Shown here piece after piece: positions 3 to 64,000 of a DNA stretch of 64,000 nucleotides. The first letter of the stretch is position 1. The number at the start of each line of letters is the position of its first letter. This stretch comes from Myxococcales bacterium. GTDB taxonomy: Bacteria > Myxococcota > Myxococcia > Myxococcales > UBA5297. The notes beneath the pieces are model-generated. The model searched no databases, was not told the origin of the DNA, and saw only the letters and a program-made list of their open reading frames with translations. The translations under genes and the position numbers were made by a program. The DNA is taken from the NCBI GenBank assembly GCA_050942745.1, contig JBMNNX010000001.1, forward strand, positions 22,938 through 86,937, written 5' to 3'.

Positions 3-422
3 ATCGCGGGCGCCGAGGTCGGCACGCTCGAGTCGGGCACGAACGCCGGCGCCATCACCCGGTACACCGGCGGCAAGGCCGGCTGGCCGTGGTGCGCGCG
101 GTTCGTCTCGTGGTGCTATCGGCAGGCTGGCATGCCGTTGCCCGGCGGCGACCAGTGGGCCGTCGCCGCCATCAAGTCCACGATCCGCCGGCTCGGGCAG
201 TGGCGCGACCCGCGCGACCTGCAGCCCGGGATGGCCTGCGTGCTCGCGACGCGCTCGCACATCGAGCTCGTCTCCAGTCCGGTGCACCAGGACGGCAAGC
301 TGACCGGCTTCATGACCATCGGCGCGGACACCCCGGCCCCTGGCGCCCGGCACCAGGGCGTCGGGCAGCGGTTCCGCGGGCTCGGCGGGCTCGAGGGCGG
401 CGGTTTTCCGGTCCGGATCTAG
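3..422 (+). CDS. CHAP-domain peptidoglycan amidase/peptidase, C-terminal part (5' end lies outside the window)
   Basis: The frame is open from the window edge to TAG at 420-422. The translation ...GKAGWPWCARFVSWCYRQAG...TRSHIELV... carries the Cys (PWC) and His (SHIE) motifs typical of CHAP/NlpC-like amidases. Confidence 0.6.
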   Translation: MAGAEVGTLESGTNAGAITRYTGGKAGWPWCARFVSWCYRQAGMPLPGGDQWAVAAIKSTIRRLGQWRDPRDLQPGMACVLATRSHIELVSSPVHQDGKLTGFMTIGADTPAPGARHQGVGQRFRGLGGLEGGGFPVRI

Positions 423-437
423 ATCGAGGGCGGCCCG

Positions 438-1421
438 CTACTGCGCGAGCGCCGCCTTCAGCCGCTTGCGCAGATCGCTCGCGACCACGACGACCTTCTG
501 CCCCCCGCGCACGCCGACGAAGGCAAGCCCCATCCGCCGCAGCCACGCGAGCGGCCCGGAGGGCGGTCGCGCGGTCCAGTAGAAACCGTCGGCCTCGTCC
601 AGGCCGGGCTTCTCGACCGCGTCCAGGTAGCGCATCGCCCCTCCGCGCTCGAGGATCTTCGCGAGCAGCTCGCGCGCTTCGTCTGGCAGCCCGGCAACGA
701 GCACCTCGAGCTGCTCCTCGTCGCCGAGGTAGTCGGCGATAGCCTTGCGGCGGGCGGCGCGCGGGGCGCCGAGGGCCGCGTCCGGCAAGTCGAGGCCGAG
801 GATGTCGAAGATGGCGCTGGCCCAGTCCGAGGGCAGGTGCGCGAGCAACGCCTCGAGAGTCGCGGGCTCGGGCAGAAGCTTCTGCTCAGCGCTCTGCCGC
901 ATGCGGACCTCGTCGGCGGTGACGGGCTTGCCCCGGAAACCGGTCAGCGAAGGCATCAGCGTCTGCTCGCCGGTCAGCACGTTGGTCTCGGCGACGAACG
1001 CGGGCAGCTCGCCGACGCGCCGGAGGATCTCCGCGTCATCGACCCTGGCGACCGTCTCGTAGTCGAACACCCCGCCGGCGAGCCGGTCGCCGAGCCTCTC
1101 GAGCAGCCGCGAGCGCAGATCGATAAGCTCGCGCCAGACCTTCTCAAGCTCCTCGGCGTGCGCGGGGACGTCCTCGGGCGAGAGGCGCTGGGCCTCGCGC
1201 AGCCCGACGTACAGGTAGACGTTCGCCGCGCAGTGCTCCCAGGCGTCGAGCTCGCTGGCGATGGCCGCGCGCGACACCTCGCCCGCCTCGATCGCCCGCT
1301 CGATGCCCAGCTCGAAACAGCAGGTCCGGTCGGCGAGGACCGCGACGCGATCGAGCAGCCACTCGAGGCGCGGCGTCCCCGGCTCCCAGGGCAGCTCGGG
1401 CCAGGGGTTCGGGTCCTTCAT
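438..1421 (-). CDS. uncharacterized cytoplasmic protein, paralog of 60838..61815
   Basis: ATG at 1419-1421, 327 aa, no signal peptide. It shares motifs with the 325-aa ORF at 60838..61815: WEP, EWLLDR, AGEV, LDAW, MR.SAEQ..LP, LPSDW, and GLDEADGFYW..RPPSGPLA.LRR.GL.FVG. Confidence 0.75.
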   Translation of the reverse strand: MKDPNPWPELPWEPGTPRLEWLLDRVAVLADRTCCFELGIERAIEAGEVSRAAIASELDAWEHCAANVYLYVGLREAQRLSPEDVPAHAEELEKVWRELIDLRSRLLERLGDRLAGGVFDYETVARVDDAEILRRVGELPAFVAETNVLTGEQTLMPSLTGFRGKPVTADEVRMRQSAEQKLLPEPATLEALLAHLPSDWASAIFDILGLDLPDAALGAPRAARRKAIADYLGDEEQLEVLVAGLPDEARELLAKILERGGAMRYLDAVEKPGLDEADGFYWTARPPSGPLAWLRRMGLAFVGVRGGQKVVVVASDLRKRLKAALAQ

Positions 1422-23921: not shown

Positions 23922-24701
23922 TCAACTCGGCTTCTGCAGCTTCTCGATGAGGCGCTCCTCGGCCTTCGTGAGGCTTCGTCCCACCGAGCTCTCGAGCTCT
24001 TCGCGCGTCAGGGCGCCGACGCCGTCGCGGTGGATCGCCATCAGCACGTTCGCCCGCTGCGCCGACTGCAACGCATCGTGGCAGTCGCGAAAGAGCACGA
24101 GCGGGACGTCGTCGCCGAGCGCGGCGACCCGCTCGAGGTGGCGGCGCAACAGCTCGAGCGGCGGCGTCTCCGGCGGCAGTCGCTCGGTCGCGATCTGCTC
24201 GGGTAGCGAGAGGTGGTCGATGCCCGCCGAGTCGACGGTCACGAGCATCGCGCCGTCGCTCAGCTCGCCGCACAGCTCGACGACTCGCAGCCGGCGCGGG
24301 ACGACACCCATGATCTGCATCAGCCGCGCGAAGCCCTTCGGCCGCACCTGAGCCGCCGAGGCGCGCACGCGGCCGTCGGCGGCGACGAAGCCGCGCGAGA
24401 CGCTCTCGAGGTTGGGGAGGGCGCGCGCCACGGTCAGGTCCACGACGTCGCCGACGTGCGTGAAACCCGCGGAGGCGAGCTCGTGGCTGACCGCCTCGTA
24501 CCAGCCTCGGTCGAGCCGCGGGTACTCCTCGAGCTTCACGTCGCGGTACTCGTGCGCGCCCACGAAGACCTGCCCCATCCGCTTCTTCAAGCTGTCGGCC
24601 TGCCTCGTGAGGCGCTCCTCGCGGGAACTGCGGAGCATGCCCGGAAACAGGGCAAGGAGCACGAGCACGAAGATCGCCGCCAGCAACAGCCACCCGACCA
24701 T
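23922..24701 (-). CDS. membrane-anchored hypothetical protein
   Basis: ATG 24699-24701 with GAGG upstream. A single N-terminal TM helix, WLLLAAIFVLVLLALF. I recognise no motif. Confidence 0.55.
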   Translation of the reverse strand: MVGWLLLAAIFVLVLLALFPGMLRSSREERLTRQADSLKKRMGQVFVGAHEYRDVKLEEYPRLDRGWYEAVSHELASAGFTHVGDVVDLTVARALPNLESVSRGFVAADGRVRASAAQVRPKGFARLMQIMGVVPRRLRVVELCGELSDGAMLVTVDSAGIDHLSLPEQIATERLPPETPPLELLRRHLERVAALGDDVPLVLFRDCHDALQSAQRANVLMAIHRDGVGALTREELESSVGRSLTKAEERLIEKLQKPS

Positions 24702-25100
24702 GGAAAAAACCTCGCAGGAAGGCGGTCTACGCAGGTTCGGTCCGTTCCCGTGACCATCCTCTCCTCGCCTGCACTGCCCTCGACGGGCACTACTCTACTC
24801 TCGGAGCTTTTCGCGGCGGCCTCGCGCCGCGGCCGCCGGCAGCCCTTCCGCTTGGCGATCACTCCGGAAAGCGGGAGAATGCCCACCGCTGTACGCTGGG
24901 TGCCGGCTATCAGAAACGCCCCAGCTAGCGAAGGATCGAGAGGACACCAGGACAGTCACGACGCCGAGCCAGTGAGGCGCCCCTCGCGAGCGGCAGGAGG
25001 CTTCGCGGGCGGGTGTCGCGGGAGCTCGGCGGCTTCGCGACCGCAGGCGCAGATCACCGCTGCCTGCGCCCTCGCACCCTCGGAAGGAAAGCGGCCAACG

Positions 25101-28595
<3,495 letters not shown>

Positions 28596-28625: not shown

Positions 28626-29717
28626 ATGAAGAGGACGACCGCATCCGTCCTGGCCGCCGCAGCGGCCTTACTCGCAATCGCGCCGGCCGCGGCCGCGCAG
28701 AGTTCCGCGGGCGACAAGGCCCCGAGCGCCCAGGCAGCGCAGGCCAAGGCGGACAGCGCGCCCGGCGCCACTCAGGCGCCCGCCGCTCAGGCACCGGCCG
28801 AGCGCCCCTGGGCCCGCGGCGTCTCGCCCGAGGACCAGAAGAAGGCGCTCGCCCTGTTCAAGGAGGGCAACGCGCTGCTCAAGGAGTCGGTCTTCGTCCA
28901 GGCGGCTGCCCGATACCGTGAAGCGCTCGGGCACTGGGACCACCCGGCCATCCACTACAACCTCGTGCTCGCGCTGCTCAACCTCGACCAGCCGCTCGAG
29001 GTGCACCACCACCTTCAGAAGGCGATGGAGTACGGGCCCGAGCCGCTCGATCTCGAGAAGTTCGAGCAGGCCAAGGCCTACAAGCTGCTCGTCGAGAAGC
29101 AGCTCGCCCGCGTCAAGATCCGCTGCTCGGTCGAAGGCGCCCAGATCACGATGGACGGGCGGCCGCTGTTCGTCGCCCCGGGCGAGTACGAGGGCTTCGT
29201 GCGCCCCGGGCCACACTCCATCGTGGCGACGAAGGAAGGCTACCTGACCAACGAGACCAGCCGCGCGCTGCCGGCCGGCGAGACGACGACGCTCGACATC
29301 GAGCTGCTCACCGCGGCCGATCTGACCGAGTACCGACGCCGCTGGGACGCCTGGAAGCCCTGGTCGGTCGTCGCCGCCGGCGTGGTCGTCGCCGCGGTCG
29401 GCGGGGGTCTGCACTACACCGGCATCGACAAGATCCGCCAGTTCGACCAGGGGATTCAGGCCTGCGGCGGCTGCGTGCCCTCGGCGGACCTCGAGAGCAC
29501 CCGGACCACCGGCACGCGCATGCAGGGCATCGGCATCGGGGGCTACGCGGTCGGCGGCGCGGCCCTGGCCACCGGAGCGGTGCTCGTCTACATGAACCGC
29601 CTGCAACCCTACCAGGTCGCGCCGGGCGCCGAGGCCAAGCCCGCCGAGCCGGCGGTGAGCATCGCCCCGCTGCTCGGCGGCGAGACCAACGGCATGTCAG
29701 CCACCTTCCGTTTCTAG
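28626..29717 (+). CDS. exported TPR-like / PEGA-domain protein with C-terminal TM segments
   Basis: Signal peptide [28 protein letters not shown]-like block [19 protein letters not shown]...[14 protein letters not shown] segments [17 protein letters not shown] and [30 protein letters not shown] 30 nt after the kinase stop. Confidence 0.7.
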
Positions 29718-29727
29718 AGGTCGAGCG

Positions 29728-36870
<7,143 letters not shown>

Positions 36871-40347: not shown

Positions 40348-40977
40348 CTACCGCTGCGCCTGGAGCTGGGCAGACTTCGGGCTTCGGGTCTGCGAGACGA
40401 CGACGGTCTTCGCCTTCGGATCGCCGTGGACCCGGAAGGTCGCCGGCACCGACTGGTTCGCCCAATGCCTCCCGCTCTTCTGGAGCTGGAAGTGCAGGTG
40501 TGAGCCGCAGGAGAAGCCGGTCGAGCCGACCGTGCCGAGGAGCTGTCCGGCCTTCACCCTCTGGCCGGGCCGCACGAAGACCTTGGAGAAGTGCAGGTAC
40601 TGCGTCTCGTAGCCGCTCTCATGCGAGAGGATGACGTAGTTGGCCCACGGGCCGGCCTCGCGGAAGCAGCCGCCCTGCGTCGAGTCGCCGCGCGCCAGGC
40701 GCACGACGCCGTCGTGGGCGGCGACGACCGGGGCACCTTCGGGGGCTCGGAAGTCCCAGCCCCAGTGGTCGCGCCCGACGTGGCTGAAGGTGCCGTGGGC
40801 CTGCGAGACTTCGACCTCTATCCCGTAGGGAAACGGCAGCTCCAGCTCGACGCCGGTCGGCTGCATCTCCTCCGCGGGGACGGGCGGCTCGCCCCACTGC
40901 GCCATTGCGGGCGCTGCTGCTCCGAGCGCCAGTGCCACGACGCCCAGCCTTAGTGTGTGAAGTACGTGCGGTTTCAT
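40348..40977 (-). CDS. M23-family (LytM-type) metallopeptidase, exported
   Basis: Start re-set to ATG 40975-40977. Signal peptide MKPHVLHTLRLGVVALALGAAAPAMA. H..GWDF, ...HDG.V... and GSTGFSCGSHLHFQL motifs. Confidence 0.8.
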   Translation of the reverse strand: MKPHVLHTLRLGVVALALGAAAPAMAQWGEPPVPAEEMQPTGVELELPFPYGIEVEVSQAHGTFSHVGRDHWGWDFRAPEGAPVVAAHDGVVRLARGDSTQGGCFREAGPWANYVILSHESGYETQYLHFSKVFVRPGQRVKAGQLLGTVGSTGFSCGSHLHFQLQKSGRHWANQSVPATFRVHGDPKAKTVVVSQTRSPKSAQLQAQR

Positions 40978-41106
40978 ATCGAGGGCTCCCAACAGGCGCC
41001 CCCGTGAAGCGATTCCGCGTAAGCCTGCGAAATCACTTCATGAACGGGGACCGGGCCCTCGAACCGGTGCGATGAGCGAAAGGGGCTTGGACGGCCGCCG
41101 AGGCGC

Positions 41107-56197: not shown

Positions 56198-59100
56198 CTA
56201 CAGATTGACCTCTCGATGCATCTCGCCGATCGGCCGAATCAGCACTTCGCGCGGCTTCGAGCCGTTCGCCGGCCCGACGATGCCCTCGCGCTCCATGCGC
56301 TCGATGATGCGCGCGGCGCGGTTGTAGCCGAGCCGCAGCTTGCGCTGGAGCATTGAGACCGAGACGGTGCGCATCTCGCTGACGATGGCGAGGCACTGGT
56401 CGTACATCTCGTCGGAGTGCTCCCCGCCGCCGGCGCCGCCCTCCTCCGACTCCTCGTCGCGCGGCTTGAGGATCGACTCGTCGTAGACCGGCTTGCCCTG
56501 CGCCTTGAGGTGCGAGACGACCTTGGTGATTTCCTGGTCGGAGACGAAGGCGCCGTGGACGCGCTCGAGGTGGGCCGAGGTCGGCGGCAGGATGAGCATG
56601 TCGCCCATGCCGAGCAGCGCCTCGGCGCCCACGCAGCCGAGGATGGTCATCGAGTCGGGCTTGCTGCGGAGCTGGAAGCTGACGCGCGAGGGGAAGTTGG
56701 CCTTGATGACGCCGGTGATGACGTCGGTCGAAGGCCGCTGCGTCGCGATCATCAGGTGGATGCCAGCCGCGCGCGCCATCTGCGCCAGGCGCGCCACGTA
56801 GGTCTCGACCTCGCGCGAGGCGACCATCATCAGGTCGGCCACCTCGTCGATGATGATCACGATGTACGGCAGCTTCTTCGGGCGGTCGGCCTGCGGCTGC
56901 TCCTCGGGAGGCGGCGCGGCTTCGCAGCTCTGCTGCGGCTCGCCGCTCGCCGCCGAGCGCTCGGCGGCGGCCGGCTCGCCCTCGGCCTGCGCGCAGACGA
57001 GCGGGCTCTCGGGCGCGTTGTCGGTGGGGGCGGGCACGCCGAGGGTCGGGCCGTCGCTCGAAGCCCGCGCGATGGCCTCCTCTTCCGATTCGCCCTCGGC
57101 GACGTCGATGATCCGCAGCTTGGCGGGGGCGGGCGGCTTGTCGGCCTTGGGCGCCGCGGGCGCGGGCGCCTCTGCCTGCATCCGCTCGACCCACTTGTTG
57201 TAGCCGCCGATGTTGCGCACGCCCGCATCGGCCAGGAGCTGGTAGCGCCGCTCCATCTCCTCGACCGCCCACCGCAGCGCCAGCGCGGCCTTGCGCGCGT
57301 CGGTGACCACCGGCAGCAGCAGGTGGGGAATCCCCTCGTAGATCGACAGCTCGGTCACCTTGGGGTCGACCATGATGAAGCGCACCTCTTCCGGCGTGGC
57401 CTTGAAGAGGATGCTCATGATCATCGCGTTGACGCTGACCGACTTGCCCGAGCCGGTGGTGCCGGCGATAAGCAGGTGGGGCATCTTCGCCAGGTCGGTC
57501 ACGTACGGCATGCCCTCGATGTTCTTGCCGATGGCCATCGCCAGCTTCGAGGGCGACTTGAGGAAGACCTCCTGCTCGACTATCTCGCGCAGGTAGACCG
57601 TCTCGCGCTGCTTGTTGGGCACCTCGATGCCCACGACGCCCTTGCCCGGAATCGGGGCGACGATGCGCACCTTGAGGGCCTCCATCGCCATCGCGAGGTC
57701 GTCGGCGAGCGAGGCGATCTTCGAGATCTTGATCCCGGGCGCCGGCTCGAACTCGTACATCGTGACCACGGGCCCGGGCCGGATCTCCTTGACCGTGCCG
57801 GCGATGCCGAACGAGGCGAGCTTCTCGCGCAGCCTGTCGGCGGTGGAGAAGAACGCTTCCTTGTCGATGACCTGGCGCTGGCTCTCGTGGTCCTCGAGCA
57901 GGTCGAGGGGCGGAAGGCTGAAGCTCGAAGCGCCCTCGAAGGCGAACGGATCCTTCTTCTCGTCCTTGGCCGGCCGGGCGCGCGCGGGCGCCTTGGGCTC
58001 CACGATGAGCGGCAGCACCGGGCCGACCGCGACCGCAGGCTCGGCCAGCGCGTCGTTCGGCACCGGCGGCGGCGGCACGGATACGCGCGCCGGCTGCGGG
58101 GGCACGCTCACGCGCGGCGCGGGCGGGACGCTGGTGCGCTGCGGCAGCGTCAGGACTGGCTTCTCCGCCGCGGGCTCCTTGACCGGCTGCGGCGCCGCTG
58201 GCGGCTCGGGGCTCGCCTCGACGGGCGGCGGCGGCGCCGAGAGCGCCCAAGCAGGATCGCCCAGAGGAGCTGCTCGGACGCGGCGGGCTGCCCGCGCCGC
58301 GGCCTCGGCCTCGAGCCGTTCGATCTTCGCCTGGGCTTCGCGCGAGATGCGCGCGGCCTCCTCGGCGATGGCGTCGGCCTCGCTCGCGATGAGCTCCTCC
58401 TCGCTCGGCTCGCGCTCTCCTTCCTCGCCGGCGTCGGGATTCCCCTCGGGCTCCTCTTCCCCACGCGCGAGCGCGTACATCCGCTCGCCCTCGAGCTCCT
58501 CGGCGTCGGCGAGCGCCTGGGCGAAGGCGGCCTCCTCTTCGGCCTTCTCCTGCAGCCGTTGGGCGCGGCGCAGCTTGTAGCTCGCTATCTGCTTGCGCCC
58601 CTCGGCGAGCCCCCGGCGCCAGGCGGCGATCGCGCCGTCGCGCGTCAAACGCCCGAACGCGACGCACAGGCGCGCGAAGGCCGAGTCCGTGGCGAGCACC
58701 AGGCCGGCGGCGGCGATGGCGAAGGTGACGAGCACCGAGCCGAAGGTCGAAAACAGCGCCCGCAGGCTCTCGCCGAGCGCCGCGCCGACGGCGCCGCCCG
58801 GCGGGTAGGACAAGACGCTCGTCGAACCGACGAGCAGGTGCGCGAGGACGGCGCCGGCGAGCGCCAAGATGAGGACGCCGGCGATCTGGCGGCCCCTGCG
58901 CTTGGTGCGCCCGCGGACGAAGAGCGCGACCGAGGTGTAGGCCATCGCGATGGGCACCAGGTAGGCGCACACGCCCAAGGCGCCGAAGAGCTTGAAGCTC
59001 AGCGAGTGGCCCACCGGGCCGACGAGGTTCGCCACGCGGGTCGCGGTGGCGTCCTCGCGGTGGAAGCTGAGCAACGCGGCGAGCGCGCCGACGGCGGCGA

Positions 59101-59263
59101 TGAAGAGGGCGAGCGCGACGATGTCGAGGGCGTAGTTGCTGCCCGAGGCCGGCGCCGCCGACGGGGCGCGGGCCGGCGCGGGAGCCCTGCCGGCGCGCGC
59201 GACTTCCTGACGGGCCAGCACCCGCTTGACCGGGCGGGCCGACTGCGTCTTCCGCTTCGCCAT
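56198..59263 (-). CDS. ftsK: DNA translocase FtsK
   Basis: Start re-set to ATG 59261-59263 (GGTGGAGAG upstream). Four N-terminal TM helices and a Pro/Ala-rich linker. PHLLIAGTTGSGKSV (Walker A), IVIIIDEVADLMM (Walker B), and a C-terminal gamma/winged-helix domain ...SVSMLQRKLRLGYNRAARIIERME. Confidence 0.92.
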   Translation of the reverse strand: MAKRKTQSARPVKRVLARQEVARAGRAPAPARAPSAAPASGSNYALDIVALALFIAAVGALAALLSFHREDATATRVANLVGPVGHSLSFKLFGALGVCAYLVPIAMAYTSVALFVRGRTKRRGRQIAGVLILALAGAVLAHLLVGSTSVLSYPPGGAVGAALGESLRALFSTFGSVLVTFAIAAAGLVLATDSAFARLCVAFGRLTRDGAIAAWRRGLAEGRKQIASYKLRRAQRLQEKAEEEAAFAQALADAEELEGERMYALARGEEEPEGNPDAGEEGEREPSEEELIASEADAIAEEAARISREAQAKIERLEAEAAARAARRVRAAPLGDPAWALSAPPPPVEASPEPPAAPQPVKEPAAEKPVLTLPQRTSVPPAPRVSVPPQPARVSVPPPPVPNDALAEPAVAVGPVLPLIVEPKAPARARPAKDEKKDPFAFEGASSFSLPPLDLLEDHESQRQVIDKEAFFSTADRLREKLASFGIAGTVKEIRPGPVVTMYEFEPAPGIKISKIASLADDLAMAMEALKVRIVAPIPGKGVVGIEVPNKQRETVYLREIVEQEVFLKSPSKLAMAIGKNIEGMPYVTDLAKMPHLLIAGTTGSGKSVSVNAMIMSILFKATPEEVRFIMVDPKVTELSIYEGIPHLLLPVVTDARKAALALRWAVEEMERRYQLLADAGVRNIGGYNKWVERMQAEAPAPAAPKADKPPAPAKLRIIDVAEGESEEEAIARASSDGPTLGVPAPTDNAPESPLVCAQAEGEPAAAERSAASGEPQQSCEAAPPPEEQPQADRPKKLPYIVIIIDEVADLMMVASREVETYVARLAQMARAAGIHLMIATQRPSTDVITGVIKANFPSRVSFQLRSKPDSMTILGCVGAEALLGMGDMLILPPTSAHLERVHGAFVSDQEITKVVSHLKAQGKPVYDESILKPRDEESEEGGAGGGEHSDEMYDQCLAIVSEMRTVSVSMLQRKLRLGYNRAARIIERMEREGIVGPANGSKPREVLIRPIGEMHREVNL

Positions 59264-59535
59264 GGCGCTCTCTCCACCCTTTCGACAACCGCCAGGCAGC
59301 GCGGGCTCTCGCCCCGAGGCGACAGGCGGGCCAGCCTGCCGCCGGCTGCTACAGGTTGACACAGGGAACCGCCGGCAAGTGTAGGGTGTAGGACCAAGCG
59401 GTCAATTTTCCGGCCGGGCTGCGGGCGGGCTCTCCGAGGGAAGCCCGATCGATCGTCGCCCGAGCGTCAGGGCTCTGCCGTCGACACCGGCAAGGCTGCT
59501 ACACTCGCGGGGCCTTGGTCCCCCGGAGGAGACAC

Positions 59536-60816
59536 ATGCGCACCCGGATCCTCTCCCTCGCTCTTATCGGGCTCATCGCCTGTGGCAAGGAGCCCGAGCC
59601 GCCGGTCGAGCAGCCGGACGCTGGCGAGCAGCCGCCTCCCGTCTGCCCAGACCGCAAGGGCATCATCTGTCCGTGGGCTGGAACCGGCGCGCAGGGCTTC
59701 GACAGTGACCTCAAGCCGATCCTCGAGTCGCAGCTCGACCAGCCGACCGATCTCGTCTTCACCGGGGACAACGTCGCCTACGTCGTCGACCGGGGAAACC
59801 ACCTGGTTCGCAAGGTGACCCCGGAAGGCACGTTCGTGTCCGTGATGGGCGCGGCCAGGCGGGCAGGCGACGGCGCTCACAACGAGGCGGATTCCTTCGC
59901 TCCGGGCGTGCCTGGAATCACCGTTGCGATCAACGAGCCGACCAACGCCGTCGTCATGCCCAACGGCTCGGTCGTCGTCGCGTGTTGGCGAAACCACAAG
60001 CTGCGCACGCTCACCCCGGCGACGGGCAAGGTCTACATCTCTGCTGGCTCGTTCCAGTGCGCGAGCTCGCCGGCCTGCAGCGACACGACCCCGCCCCGCA
60101 ACGGCGATGGCAAGTCGCCGCTCGATGCGCTCTTCGACTTCCCCAGCAAGCTCGCGGTCAACTCGCTCGGAGAGCTCTTCATCGTCGACCAGCGCGTGCA
60201 GCGCATCCGCCGCATCGACGCGCGAGGCTCCGAGATCGTGACCATGGCAGGCAGCGGCAAGACCGGTTATCTGGGCGACGACGGCCAGCCGACCAAGGCC
60301 TACTTCCACTTCGACAACTCCCAGACCCCGAAGCCGAGCGGCGGGCTGGCGTTCGACGACGCCGGCAACCTCTATGTCGCCGACTCGCTCAGCCACCGGA
60401 TCCGCAAGATCGAGTTCGTCGAGACGACGGGCCCGACCGGCGAGAAGCGCCTGGTCGCGACCAGGATCTCGCTGTTCGCGGGCCGGCCCGAGCTCGACGA
60501 CCTGGCGCCCGGCTACGAAGGCGACGGCGGGCCGGCCATCGGGGCGCGCTTGAACAACCCGACCGATCTCGAGATGGGCCCGGACAACAAGCTCTACTTC
60601 GCCGACACCGGCAACCACGTCATCCGCGCCATCGACCTTTCGCAGAAGACCATCGAGACGGTCGTCGGCACCGGCACCATGGGCGATTCGGGAGACTCCG
60701 GCGCAGCTTCGAGCGCCGAGCTGTCGCACCCGATGGGCATCGCCTTCGACAGCAAGGGCGTGCTCTATATCGCCGACACGGGCAACCACCGGATTCGCCG
60801 CGTGCCGCTGCCCTGA
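59536..60816 (+). CDS. NHL-repeat beta-propeller lipoprotein
   Basis: Start re-set to ATG 59536 (GGAGGAG at 59525-59531). Lipobox LIGLIAC. Repeated (V/A)D.GNH.(V/I)R(K/R)(V/I) motifs: VDRGNHLVRKV, ADSLSHRIRKI, ADTGNHVIRAI, ADTGNHRIRRV. Confidence 0.75.
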   Translation: MRTRILSLALIGLIACGKEPEPPVEQPDAGEQPPPVCPDRKGIICPWAGTGAQGFDSDLKPILESQLDQPTDLVFTGDNVAYVVDRGNHLVRKVTPEGTFVSVMGAARRAGDGAHNEADSFAPGVPGITVAINEPTNAVVMPNGSVVVACWRNHKLRTLTPATGKVYISAGSFQCASSPACSDTTPPRNGDGKSPLDALFDFPSKLAVNSLGELFIVDQRVQRIRRIDARGSEIVTMAGSGKTGYLGDDGQPTKAYFHFDNSQTPKPSGGLAFDDAGNLYVADSLSHRIRKIEFVETTGPTGEKRLVATRISLFAGRPELDDLAPGYEGDGGPAIGARLNNPTDLEMGPDNKLYFADTGNHVIRAIDLSQKTIETVVGTGTMGDSGDSGAASSAELSHPMGIAFDSKGVLYIADTGNHRIRRVPLP

Positions 60817-60837: not shown

Positions 60838-61815
60838 ATGAGCACACTTCACGACTGGCCCTCGCTGGCATGGGAGCCGCCCTCCGAACGCGCTGCCGAG
60901 TGGCTCCTCGACCGCACCATCGAGGTCGCCGCGCGAGCGCGGGCCTTCGAGGTCGGGCTCGAGCAGGCCGGCGAGGCCGGAGAGGTCGACCTCGCGCTCG
61001 TCGGCAGTGATCTGGACGCGTGGGACAAGTGGGCCGCTCGGGTGTTCGCGTACACGGCGATCGGCGAAGGGCTCGCGCTCCCTGCCGACACCGGCGCCTT
61101 CGCGCGGCGGCTCGAGGAGACCTACGGCCACTTGACCTGTGTCCGCGCTCGGCTGCTCGCCAGGCTGGGAGCCGAAGGGGCGGCGCGGGTGATCGAGCGC
61201 GAGGCGGCCGCGGAGATCGACCGCGCCCGCCTGCGCCAGCGAACGGATAAGGCGCCCGCCCTCGAGCTCATCGCGGGCGAGCAGGACCTCCAAGAGGTCG
61301 ACGCCCCGGTCGAAAGCCCGGTGAGGGCCGACGAGCTGCAGATGCGCAGCCAAGCCGAGCAGAGGCCTCTGCCCGACGGCGCGCGCCTGGGGGATCTTCT
61401 CGCGGCGCTCCCGTCCGACTGGCTGCGGGCGGTCTTCGAAAACCTCGAGCTGGCGCTCCCCGACGGCGCGCCGGCGCCAGCTTCGCGCTCCTCGGCTCGC
61501 CGGCAGGCTGTCGCCGAGCACCTCTTCGACGAACAGAACCTGAGCCTCATCGCCGAGAGCCTTGATCCCATCGAACGGGGGCTCGTGTCCGAGCTTCTCG
61601 CCGCGGACGGAAGCCTGCCCTACAAGCAGATCACCGAGACGTACGGGCTCGACGAAGCCGACGGGTTCTACTGGAGCGAGCGCCCTCCTTCCGGGCCGCT
61701 CGCGAGACTGCGCCGGCTGGGCCTCGTCTTCGTCGGCACGAGGAATGGCCAACTCACCGTGACCGTCGCCTGCGAGCTCCGGGTGGGCCTCCGAGAACTG
61801 CTCGCGGCGGAGTGA
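60838..61815 (+). CDS. uncharacterized cytoplasmic protein, paralog of 438..1421
   Basis: ATG 60838, 21 nt after the NHL gene stop. 325 aa and colinear with the 327-aa protein at 438..1421 (shared motifs listed there). Confidence 0.75.
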   Translation: MSTLHDWPSLAWEPPSERAAEWLLDRTIEVAARARAFEVGLEQAGEAGEVDLALVGSDLDAWDKWAARVFAYTAIGEGLALPADTGAFARRLEETYGHLTCVRARLLARLGAEGAARVIEREAAAEIDRARLRQRTDKAPALELIAGEQDLQEVDAPVESPVRADELQMRSQAEQRPLPDGARLGDLLAALPSDWLRAVFENLELALPDGAPAPASRSSARRQAVAEHLFDEQNLSLIAESLDPIERGLVSELLAADGSLPYKQITETYGLDEADGFYWSERPPSGPLARLRRLGLVFVGTRNGQLTVTVACELRVGLRELLAAE

Positions 61816-61909
61816 GCTCGCCGCGGGCGGACCGAAGCCGAGCCCTGTCGAAAAAGCGCCGCCCGCGCGGCTGCGCGGACGGCACCAAGGTCGCGTTCCT
61901 TTCGGCGGA

Positions 61910-62830
61910 TCAACGCACGTAGGTGAAGTGCCAGTACTCGCCAGACACGTTGTTGACGAAGCCGAACTTCGACGCGTTGGCGGCCAGCCAACGGTAGGCG
62001 CGCGTGTTGTAGCCGCCGACCCCTCCGATATCGACCGCGAGCCCCATCTGATGGTTGGAGTACCCGGGCTTCGCCGCGCGGGGCGAGCCGTAGCGCTGGT
62101 AGAGCGCCTGCTGCTGGGCGTAGGTTCGATAGCCGCTGGTGGTCGTCAGCCTGATGCCCGCCCGGCGCGCCGCGGCGAGCATGTCCTTGTAGGCCTGGGC
62201 GCAGCGAACGTTCAGGTATTGCCCCCCGCCGACCGGCGCGATGCGGATGCTGACGCGCTTGCCTCGGCTGTAGCCGGTAGCGGCGATCCCGCTTGAGCTG
62301 CTCGCGGAGGACGAGGAAGCGCTACTGACACCCGATGCGCCGAGCGCCGCCCAGGTCTTGGGCCCCACCACGCCGTCGACGGCCAGGCCGCGCGCGCGCT
62401 GGAAAGCCTTGACGGCCGCCAGGGTCTTGGGACCGAAGCTCCCGTCGACAGCGATGGAGTAGCCCTTGTTGCGCAGCAGCGTCTGCAGCGTCTTCACCGC
62501 CGAGCCCCGCGCCCCCGAGCGCAAGGTCGGCATGTTCTTGGCCGACGACGCGGACGAGGAGGAGGACGAAGCGCCCGAGCGCAGGGCGGCCCAGGTCTTG
62601 GGCCCCACCACGCCGTCGACGCTCAGCCCCGAAGCGCGCTGAAAGGCCTTGACGGCCTCCAGGGTTTTCGGACCGAAGCTCCCATCGACCGCGATGGAGT
62701 AGCCCTTGCTGCGCAGCAAGGTCTGCAGTGTCTTGACCGAAGTGCCGCGCGCCCCCAGGCGAAGGACGGGCGATCCGGATGATGACGACGAAACGCGCTG
62801 CGAGCTGCTCGATACGCCGGAAACGGGCAT
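61910..62830 (-). CDS. M15-family (VanY-like) peptidoglycan peptidase with two PG_binding_1-type domains, no signal peptide
   Basis: Start re-set to ATG 62828-62830 (AAGAGGGG upstream). Two copies of G.RG..VK.LQ.LL..KGY...VDG.FGP.T..AVKAFQ...GL.VDG.VG..TW.AL, separated by Ser-rich linkers. C-terminal YRTYAQQ...GYSNHQMGLAVDI...EYWHFTY (H..D..H zinc motif). Confidence 0.8.
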   Translation of the reverse strand: MPVSGVSSSSQRVSSSSSGSPVLRLGARGTSVKTLQTLLRSKGYSIAVDGSFGPKTLEAVKAFQRASGLSVDGVVGPKTWAALRSGASSSSSSASSAKNMPTLRSGARGSAVKTLQTLLRNKGYSIAVDGSFGPKTLAAVKAFQRARGLAVDGVVGPKTWAALGASGVSSASSSSASSSSGIAATGYSRGKRVSIRIAPVGGGQYLNVRCAQAYKDMLAAARRAGIRLTTTSGYRTYAQQQALYQRYGSPRAAKPGYSNHQMGLAVDIGGVGGYNTRAYRWLAANASKFGFVNNVSGEYWHFTYVR

Positions 62831-62952
62831 GTCGTACCCCTCTTGGTGTGCCCTTGGAGTATCGCCCGATCGGCGCAAAAGTTGCGCCGCCGGGCCCGAG
62901 CTCCCGCAGAGCCCGGGCACCTACATGTCCCACCCTGCGCCCGGCAGATGTG

Positions 62953-64000
62953 CTATGGGGACGCGAGCACGGCCGCACGAACCAGCAAGACGTCGTCGTG
63001 CACGCTACAGGTGCCGCCCTGTCCGTGCGTGACGCCATAGGCCAGGCGAGGCCGGCCGGCCGGGTCGAGCGAGAGCGCGACGTCCGCGCCAACGACGTTC
63101 CAGACGGAGATCGAGCACCCAGGCTTGAGGGGAACGGGGAGGCTTTCCTCGAGATCGCTGGTGCTCTCGACGAGCGTGCTGCGCCATCGGGCGCTGGATG
63201 ATTCGCACGACTGGTCGCAGCTCGCGAGCCCTAGGCCGTGGACAGACTGAGAGAAGTTGTCGATGCCTCCAGCGATCCGCGGTCGGTTGTTCGCATCGAA
63301 AGCGAGCGCAATCCCTTCCTCGGCAAACCGGTTGACAACGGGGACCCGCGCCGAGCTCCAGGCCGACGAGACCGTGCAGCCCGAATTGCACCACGCGTAG
63401 AAGGTCTTCTCGCTCTGCGCGGCTTCGCCGAGATCGCCCTCGTAGATCGCCATGCGCGGCCGACCGCTGCGGTCTGACCGCAGGTCGAACCGGCCGCCCC
63501 AGCCGAGCACGAAGAGCGCCCTGGCGCTCCAACTCGAGGCATTCAGACAGTTGCCATCGCACTCAGAATAGTAGATGTTGCCATCTCTATTAAAGGCGAC
63601 GCGCGGCTTGCCCGGGCCGGCGAAGTCCACCGCGATATCGTAACCCCGCACGTTCGACAGGTCGGCCTGCCGCCAGCTCGCCGCAACGGTGCAGTTCTGA
63701 GAGCAGGAAGCGAAGCGAGTCGAGCTCGGTCCTCGATGGACGATGACAAGGCTGCCATTCGGGTCGATGCCGAAGTAGCGGTCCCCCCACGGCCCGCCCT
63801 CGTTGGTCTGGAATACTTCGCCCGCCGTCCAGTTCCCCCGCCGAGAGCAGCCCGCCTCGCAACGCGCGAGCCAGTACGCGCCATTCGATCCGGTCCAGTG
63901 GTCGGAACCGAACCACGCGACGCGCGGCCTGCCCGCGGCGTCGAGCGCCAGGCTCGGGTAGGCTCCGTTGAGCCCCGCGACGCCGATGTCCGTTACGGTC
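62953..64000 (-). CDS. repeat protein (six or more ~45-aa units, propeller-like), 5' end outside the window
   Basis: I translated 63652-63999 by hand and the frame stays open to the window edge. Units have the form (L/F)..D..GRPR(V/I/L/M)A(W/F/Y)....(Y/F)..C...C.....W, for example LALDAAGRPRVAW..YWLARCEAGCS..NW and DFAGPGKPRVAF..IYYSECDGNCLNASSW. Confidence 0.65.
   Translation of the reverse strand, partial: TVTDIGVAGLNGAYPSLALDAAGRPRVAWFGSDHWTGSNGAYWLARCEAGCSRRGNWTAGEVFQTNEGGPWGDRYFGIDPNGSLVIVHRGPSSTRFASCSQNCTVAASWRQADLSNVRGYDIAVDFAGPGKPRVAFNRDGNIYYSECDGNCLNASSWSARALFVLGWGGRFDLRSDRSGRPRMAIYEGDLGEAAQSEKTFYAWCNSGCTVSSAWSSARVPVVNRFAEEGIALAFDANNRPRIAGGIDNFSQSVHGLGLASCDQSCESSSARWRSTLVESTSDLEESLPVPLKPGCSISVWNVVGADVALSLDPAGRPRLAYGVTHGQGGTCSVHDDVLLVRAAVLASP

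Follow-up and report, generated by a model that had tools for sequence, protein, structure and literature searches.

How does an enzyme that carries two peptidoglycan-binding domains and no export signal gain access to the cell wall? The inner membrane stands in the way of any wall hydrolase, and, phages aside, nearly all such enzymes cross it with the help of a signal peptide. The question is raised by a gene for an M15 peptidase of 306 aa (isoelectric point, pI, 11.05; N-terminal protein sequence beginning MPVSGVSSSSQRVSSSSSGSP), which lies near the end of a 64,000-nt stretch of contig JBMNNX010000001.1 from a Myxococcales bacterium. This whole stretch is called the window; coordinates are window positions, and the locus labels L001-L020 and the P numbers are our own. 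The protein is 100% identical to P0001, annotated as 'MAG: peptidoglycan-binding protein [Myxococcales bacterium]' (MAG, metagenome-assembled genome), and has about 290 scored relatives. The answer favoured here, at about even confidence, is that the gene encodes a resident endolysin-style peptidase of the VanY/LdcB type, linked to an acidic cytoplasmic partner of 325 aa and having Sec-independent access to peptidoglycan. The elements discussed are collected in Table 1.

The domain structure of the peptidase is well defined. Pfam recognizes PG_binding_1 twice (E 9e-44; 147.9 bits, 2 stretches above threshold) and VanY (PF02557) at 74.2 bits (cut-off 25; E 1.1e-20), and NCBIfam adds matches to VanY, LdcB and VanXY, all sub-threshold. 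The AlphaFold model, with a predicted local distance difference test score (pLDDT) of 86, features a pair of three-helix bundles and a catalytic domain of compact shape, with disordered Ser-rich linkers in between. The PG-binding domains resemble those of the phage endolysins 7rum, 5nm7 and KZ144 in sequence and fold, and domain 1 matches 7rum at E 7e-14 among PDB sequences. For the catalytic domain, the search of PDB sequences returns VanY (1.8e-12 to 4.1e-12) and LdcB (about 1e-8), and Foldseek returns VanYB (5hnm; E 5.6e-9, 33% identity) and the Bacillus enzyme BaLdcB (4mph; root-mean-square deviation 2.2 A over 119 columns). More remote matches include VanXY (VanXYc and VanXYg), the L-Ala-D-Glu endopeptidase Ply500 of a Listeria phage, LysB4 and Serratia ChiX. 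The zinc and catalytic motifs, SNHQMGLAVD (SxHxxGxAxD) and EYWH (ExxH), are fully preserved, and H260, D267, E298 and H301 are invariant across 35 homologs.

Pfam, motifs and fold agree with the preliminary description of this DNA, made from the letters alone, in which the protein was called an M15 peptidase with two PG-binding domains. By sequence and model, membership of the catalytic domain in the VanY/LdcB fold is clear, and the protein is predicted to be catalytically active, a zinc peptidase of the LAS fold and of VanY/LdcB (M15B) type carried on two PG-binding domains. As to the bond that is cut, the sequence does not discriminate between a carboxypeptidase trimming stem peptides and a lytic endopeptidase.

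Export signals were called from Kyte-Doolittle averages over 12-residue windows and by reading the translation for Cys, RR and lipobox. The top window within residues 1-40 of the peptidase reaches 0.41 (signal peptides in the same hit list exceed 2), and no Cys, RR (Tat) motif or lipobox was read in the N-terminus. The claim that signal peptide and lipobox are both missing is borne out, and no upstream in-frame start supplies a signal peptide. An in-frame TAG (62923-62921) lies immediately 5' of the alternative GTG start at 62920, so that the longest N-terminal extension measures 30 aa (MPGLCGSS...) and is not signal-like. The model drops below pLDDT 50 at residues 1-17, within the short leader that precedes the first PG-binding domain.

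The same holds for the relatives. A hydrophobic N-terminus is found in none of 76 intact Myxococcota proteins with a VanY C-terminus (maximal 12-residue average <1.6), which come from Myxococcus, Corallococcus, Pyxidicoccus, Archangium, Melittangium, Vitiosangium, Hyalangium and many MAGs. All begin with a segment of about 20 residues rich in S, T and A. Acidic residues are absent from the first 20 positions in 74 of the 76, an aliphatic residue or Pro occupies position 3 or 4 in 73, and the S+T content of the leader is 0.30, against 0.12 in the other proteins of the window. In the closest clade the leader motif M-[PT]-V-S-x-V is conserved. This kind of leader and PG-binding module is also found fused to CHAP catalytic domains (P0090, P0098, P0314). 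Streptomyces, Clostridia and other non-myxobacterial proteins in the hit list have only the PG-binding domains in common with the peptidase, and feature classical signal peptides (>2). Judged from the sequences, absence of a Sec, Tat or lipoprotein signal is a trait of the whole Myxococcota family.

The peptidase gene has transcription signals of its own. A Shine-Dalgarno-like sequence is located 6 nt 5' of the ATG, and the promoter-like string GCAACT-N15-CGATA is located 30-55 nt 5' of it. The string occurs once in the window, against 0.04 occurrences expected. It is found at the equivalent site in close relatives (L005:7999-8025) and in the 54%-identical homolog of L011 and L012 (L011:7933-7958), with one mismatch in L008, and in looser versions in Myxococcus and Archangium; it was not found upstream of the CHAP gene described below. 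We infer a resemblance to promoters read by extracytoplasmic function (ECF) sigma factors (AAC ... CG-TA). A terminator-like hairpin follows the stop codon, and the peptidase gene thus appears to be a transcription unit by itself, with the conserved ECF-sigma-like promoter at one end and a separate terminator at the other. The gene for the 325-aa protein converges on it, tail to tail, across a gap of 94 nt.

This 325-aa protein has no family in Pfam, NCBIfam or PHROG scans. Its AlphaFold2 (AF2) model (pLDDT 78.5) begins with a bundle of helices (residues 19-124), from which an acidic, disordered linker leads to a C-terminal domain made of helices and a winged helix. Foldseek aligns it to ArsR/MarR/TFIIH-p52-like winged helices with probability 0.9-0.99 at non-significant E values (0.2-1). 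The protein is acidic throughout, the winged-helix part included; the C-terminal domain has a pI of 5.0, against 9.5 in the paralog P0125. Full-length representatives are few, about 16 in a profile search, and the scans returned 3 loci in the genome collection and 4 in metagenomes; the family is rare, and statistics on its contexts are therefore thin. The C-terminal ~155 residues (window 61327-61806) are common to about 500 further cluster representatives, P0143-P0275 among them, in which the domain occurs by itself or joined to TPR, HEAT, SEC-C or PRiA4_ORF3; the module is apparently unnamed. Sequence and model make the partner look like a cytoplasmic winged-helix protein rather than a periplasmic immunity protein. 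Its role may be that of a regulator, or it may bind protein as a chaperone or inhibitor.

Partner homologs recur beside peptidase homologs in convergent, tandem and divergent layouts. In L005, L006 and L018 the genes converge as in the window (partner identity about 80%). In L007 the partner homolog lies directly upstream of the peptidase homolog, on the same strand (34% identity, E 4e-39), and in L008 the two are divergent (43% identity, E 7e-74). As an observation on the side, the L007 peptidase homolog, which has a single PG-binding domain, is followed downstream by a 939-aa PilZ-Hsp70 fusion (L007:8911-11730).

A second pair opens the window. P0125, a paralog of the partner also listed on the same 93-kb contig, is encoded tail to tail with a CHAP-like peptidoglycan hydrolase, across a gap of 15 nt. 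The window start truncates the hydrolase gene, which is complete at L013:3528-4007 (whole module L013:2529-4007), and the pair is kept in another MAG (L019:4104-5740). The CHAP assignment has an E of 3e-5, PHROG matches are to endolysins, and the PDB sequence search returned nothing meaningful for this protein. Relatives in Myxococcaceae are LysM-CHAP or PG-binding-CHAP proteins, all leaderless. The charges are complementary in both pairs (hydrolases pI 11.05 and 10.6, partners 4.7 and 4.6). If about 1% of genes encode wall hydrolases, the chance of two independent adjacencies is, as a rough estimate, of the order of 1e-4.

Some further observations concern this second locus. It is probably the 'first module' of the preliminary description (window 3-1421). 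A gene for an SPFH/Band-7 zinc-ribbon protein (1532-2959) lies upstream of the P0125 gene, on the same strand. P0300-P0319, from Myxococcaceae and Myxococcales MAGs, are LysM-CHAP proteins of ~240 aa which lack a signal peptide and have LysM at the very start; in some the annotation reads 'SafA/ExsA spore coat assembly protein'. They make up a second leaderless wall-hydrolase family in Myxococcota.

Peptidase and partner are thus probably linked, and the comparative data make the link stronger than the preliminary description could show. The hydrolase-partner module proposed there stands as a pairing, given the adjacency in three orientations and the paralogous CHAP pair. Partner and peptidase, being convergent, do not make up one transcription unit, and members of the partner family are not always found beside a hydrolase. 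In the mechanism favoured here, the partner would act inside the cell, either on the hydrolase, as a chaperone or inhibitor holding the enzyme, or alternatively on its gene, as a regulator. The enzyme would then reach peptidoglycan, of its own or of another cell, by a Sec-independent route, and there would trim or cleave stem peptides.

Several findings weigh against this mechanism. The nearest structural relatives of the catalytic domain are the carboxypeptidases VanY and LdcB, which are non-lytic, and not proven lytic endopeptidases. The C-terminal domain of the partner is a widespread module and a winged helix, so that the protein may simply be a regulator. Partner homologs are found beside CN_hydrolase and M20 peptidase genes in L015, and beside an M20 peptidase gene in L020, none of them wall hydrolases. 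In L017 a longer form (517 aa, with an N-terminal extension) ends an SNF2-helicase/SWIM operon, its gene overlapping that of a SWIM-zinc-finger protein by 4 nt (L017:2-3315), an arrangement which hints at roles of the family apart from wall hydrolases. No adjacent partner was found for the Myxococcus and Archangium peptidase homologs; the neighbour genes of no assigned function in Myxococcus hansupus and Archangium gephyra have no similarity to the 325-aa protein, which is therefore not a family-wide companion. Chaperone and immunity genes seldom converge on the gene of their counterpart. No periplasmic immunity gene was found near the peptidase, and the nearby phage, type VI secretion system (T6SS), type III secretion system (T3SS) or Tad-like loci raised in the preliminary description did not materialize, the window holding no phage, holin, T3SS (sct), T6SS (hcp, vgrG, PAAR) or Tad genes. 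A search of literature and supplements for the M. xanthus DK1622 ortholog ABF87670.1 ('penicillin-resistant DD-carboxypeptidase') and for VanY/M15 proteins, outer-membrane vesicles and secretomes returned nothing relevant, and no paper was found on any member of the peptidase family.

Of the competing explanations, the one that survives best, although it is judged unlikely, is that the peptidase is a domesticated lysin for regulated self-lysis or release. The enzyme would stay in the cytoplasm until the membrane is damaged or a holin-like protein encoded elsewhere opens the way. Explosive cell lysis, pyocin lysis cassettes and holin/endolysin-assisted secretion are comparable cases. In this scheme the enzyme would have the partner as its transcriptional regulator. 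The endolysin-type architecture, the PHROG endolysin matches of both hydrolases, the missing export signal, the winged-helix fold of the partner, the tightly defined promoter and terminator of the peptidase gene and the lack of an immunity gene are all in line with such a role. Genomic contexts speak against it. Peptidase homologs in seven other contexts sit amid unrelated genes, no holin, spanin or phage gene was found beside homologs in seven or more contexts, and in the window and in L001-L012 the genes on either side of the peptidase do not encode small membrane proteins. The kinship of the catalytic domain with non-lytic carboxypeptidases is a further difficulty. An acidic charge extending to the winged helix is atypical for a DNA binder, and a regulator gene seldom converges on that of its target.

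The name endolysin, used in the preliminary description, fits the architecture, with the domain order of KZ144 and the PHROG matches, and does not fit the context. The window is a housekeeping segment, and no full-length relative of the peptidase was found in IMG/VR, where viral contigs match residues about 1-210 only, the PG-binding part. GenBank phages match at <60% identity, as domain-level endolysin hits. Because viral contigs match only the PG-binding domains, and given the housekeeping flanks, phage origin of the peptidase was rejected.

A role as a substrate of type III-like or other N-terminal-signal export, directed against prey or competitors, is quite unlikely. On this view the unstructured N-terminus, rich in Ser/Thr and free of acidic residues, would serve for secretion, with the acidic partner as chaperone. 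Effectors of Pseudomonas syringae follow empirical rules for T3SS signals: they are Ser-rich, position 3 or 4 is aliphatic or Pro, and no acidic residue falls within the first 12. The leaders described above fit these rules, their first six to eight residues are conserved, and a basic enzyme is paired with an acidic partner. These features are compositional only, and the linkers between the domains are equally Ser-rich, so that the leader 'signal' may be mere linker-like sequence. Class I T3SS chaperones measure roughly 130 aa; the partner, with 325 aa and a winged helix, is unlike them, and the Myxococcus homologs lack it. No T3SS gene was found in the window, and the close relatives of this MAG come from fermentation-type metagenomes. 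In favour of the idea, the named homologs listed all belong to genera of the Cystobacterineae, the group in which Kil and the needleless T3SS* co-occur (PMC12428579). In M. xanthus T3SS* is required for prey lysis with local degradation of prey peptidoglycan, and the effectors have not yet been identified (PMC12075869, PMC12428579), so that a predatory use would be an attractive idea. T3SS* lacks needle and secretin, and delivery to prey would need a further step.

Quite improbable as well is that the peptidase is a truly cytoplasmic enzyme for precursor editing or muropeptide recycling, comparable to the D,D-peptidases VanXY or to recycling enzymes of LdcA type. It would be induced through an ECF sigma factor by envelope stress, and its PG-binding domains would hold muropeptides in solution. 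The partner, as regulator or inhibitor, would guard the precursor pool. VanXY is leaderless too, VanXYc and VanXYg are among the structural matches, and the ECF-like promoter, the carboxypeptidase kinship and the lack of immunity or export genes are all compatible with a cytoplasmic function. Binding to polymeric wall is suggested instead by tandem PG_binding_1 domains (two, and up to three), by the pI of 11, and by the LysM or PG-binding domains of the sister CHAP family; to our knowledge, cytoplasmic VanXY and LdcA have no wall-binding modules. The family, moreover, features shuffled domains and a genomic context that varies, as is typical of accessory wall hydrolases.

That the gene is a prophage remnant (a decaying phage endolysin), or the 325-aa gene an unrelated chance neighbour, is very improbable and largely excluded: domain-level similarity to phage endolysins is outweighed by housekeeping flanks (FtsK, the DnaK operon, lipopolysaccharide (LPS) genes), uniform composition of about 70% GC, an intact active site, conservation across many genera and viral matches confined to the PG-binding region, and chance by the adjacency in three orientations and the paralogous pair with another hydrolase.

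The missing signal peptide matters beyond this locus. A phylum-wide family and a sister CHAP family, both without signal peptides, imply either that myxobacteria have an export or release route so far unrecognised, or that wall-binding enzymes serve in the cytoplasm, which would be unexpected. Since in M. xanthus the effectors acting on prey peptidoglycan downstream of Kil/T3SS* are still sought, ABF87670.1 is a directly testable candidate. A bolder extension, which must be regarded as a long shot, is that Myxococcota may hold a repertoire of signal-less endolysin-like wall hydrolases (PG-binding-VanY, PG-binding-CHAP, LysM-CHAP), exported through Sec-independent N-terminal signals by a system such as T3SS*, with acidic winged-helix proteins as dedicated cytoplasmic chaperones or anti-lysins in this lineage. 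If true, the leaderless hydrolases would for the first time offer concrete candidates for the effectors by which Myxococcus degrades peptidoglycan and lyses prey in a T3SS*-dependent way. The 325-aa partner itself defines an unannotated protein family, and its C-terminal domain is found in hundreds of unannotated proteins; should the partner prove a lysin chaperone, inhibitor or regulator, a function would be assigned to that domain.

The remaining neighbours are less informative. Coordinates and gene content were correct in the preliminary description, down to the 21-nt gap between the NHL-repeat lipoprotein gene and the 325-aa gene downstream, on the same strand, and to the Cys-pair protein directly upstream of the peptidase. 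The NHL pairing is lineage-specific and kept only in close relatives. The Cys-pair lipoprotein, which runs past the window end, features about six repeats, each made by a C-x3-C pair followed by S/A-W, and has no family in Pfam/NCBIfam scans; a full-length relative of 456 aa (L005:6563-7933) has a signal peptide and the lipobox LVATAC. It lies upstream of the peptidase only in this genus, being absent in L007, L008 and L011. Alignments to the neighbours in L007 and L008 proved these unrelated to it; the same comparisons revealed the partner homologs. The window as a whole, about 70% GC and even in composition, carries LPS genes (LpxK, KdtA, glycosyltransferases), HrcA-GrpE-DnaK-DnaJ, FtsK, an M23 peptidase, a STAND kinase and transporters. 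The M23 gene (40348-41037, minus strand) encodes another wall hydrolase. The kinase, of 1462 aa, is a Ser/Thr kinase fused to nSTAND1, a novel STAND NTPase (24207-28595, plus strand), and is followed downstream by a PEGA-domain protein and a 2404-aa open reading frame (29659-36870, plus strand). In M. hansupus (L001:4408-7613) the peptidase homolog lies beside a LanM-like lanthipeptide synthetase (DUF4135 and LANC_like) and a 79-aa DUF6229 protein, which may be coincidental.

Table 1. Features of the peptidase locus and of the paralogous CHAP locus, in window positions.
Feature	Position	Strand	Basis
3' part of gene for leaderless 159-aa CHAP-like peptidoglycan hydrolase, pI 10.6	3..422	(+)	Translation
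Paralog of partner, P0125, 327 aa, 45% identity	438..1421	(-)	tblastn, 100% match at 1421-441
FtsK	56198-59362	(-)	
NHL-repeat lipoprotein gene, lipobox LIAC	59515..60816	(+)	Pfam NHL/TEN_NHL
Partner gene; 325-aa acidic protein, pI 4.68, without signal peptide	60838..61815	(+)	Open reading frame, AF2 model
Terminator-like GC hairpin followed by T run, just 3' of peptidase stop	61858..61871	(-)	Sequence
Gene for leaderless M15B (VanY/LdcB-like) peptidoglycan peptidase	61910..62830	(-)	Open reading frame, translation, Pfam
Predicted LAS-fold zinc peptidase domain (VanY, PF02557), residues about 185-306	61913..62278	(-)	Pfam, PDB, Foldseek
PG_binding_1 domain 2, residues about 102-165	62336..62527	(-)	Pfam best stretch; three-helix bundle, pLDDT >90
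PG_binding_1 domain 1, residues about 21-84	62579..62770	(-)	Pfam; three-helix bundle, pLDDT >90
N-terminal leader MPVSGVSSSSQRVSSSSSGS, 20 aa, non-hydrophobic, Ser-rich, predicted disordered	62771..62830	(-)	pLDDT, family composition
Shine-Dalgarno-like AAGAGGGG, 6 nt 5' of ATG (62830)	62837..62844	(-)	Read from sequence
Promoter-like GCAACT-N15-CGATA	62860..62885	(-)	String search
Cys-pair repeat lipoprotein gene, runs past window end	62953..64000	(-)	Directly upstream of peptidase, same strand

Among known systems, the modular endolysins of phages that infect Gram-negative bacteria (phiKZ gp144, or KZ144, 3bkh; LysT84, 7rum; AP3, 5nm7) are the closest in build, being leaderless proteins of high pI in which an N-terminal PG_binding_1 domain precedes a C-terminal catalytic domain. 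In contrast to them, the peptidase is chromosomal, resides among housekeeping genes, holin and spanin being absent, has a duplicated PG-binding domain, and is predicted to be of the VanY type rather than a transglycosylase or muramidase. The VanY D,D-carboxypeptidase, the LdcB/DacB L,D-carboxypeptidase and VanXY (MEROPS M15B) provide the best matches to the catalytic domain, with SxHxxGxAxD and ExxH in common. VanY and LdcB are membrane-anchored or Sec-exported and VanXY is cytoplasmic, and none of them is known to have PG_binding_1 domains; the peptidase carries such domains and, unlike VanY and LdcB, is leaderless. An N-terminal PG_binding_1 domain joined to a C-terminal LAS zinc peptidase is also found in the zinc D-Ala-D-Ala carboxypeptidase of Streptomyces albus G (1lbu, M15A). 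That enzyme is secreted by a classical signal peptide, has one binding domain, and belongs to another M15 subfamily.

Likeness in the small CHAP locus (window 3-1421) is with the T6SS amidase effectors (Tae/Tse1-type) and Tai, in which small, basic, leaderless CHAP/NlpC hydrolases are encoded beside a specific partner gene. Immunity proteins of the Tai type reside in the periplasm and possess a signal peptide, which the partner lacks; hcp, vgrG and PAAR were not found in the window. As to the route, Serratia marcescens ChiX, of the ChiX/ChiW system, is a leaderless LAS-fold L-Ala-D-Glu endopeptidase which crosses the inner membrane without Sec, in a holin-dependent ('type 10') fashion. The structural match is weak (5opz; E 4e-3, 21% identity), ChiX has neither PG-binding domains nor an acidic winged-helix partner, and the peptidase homologs have no adjacent holin in the contexts examined. 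As to the partner, Myxococcus xanthus PopC is a leaderless secreted subtilisin-like protease, held in the cytoplasm by the co-encoded PopD until release. PopC does not hydrolyse the wall, its gene shares an operon with popD, and no sequence relation to the 325-aa protein is implied; by analogy, the two may nonetheless be taken as a precedent, in the same phylum, for the proposed arrangement of a hydrolase and its cytoplasmic partner.

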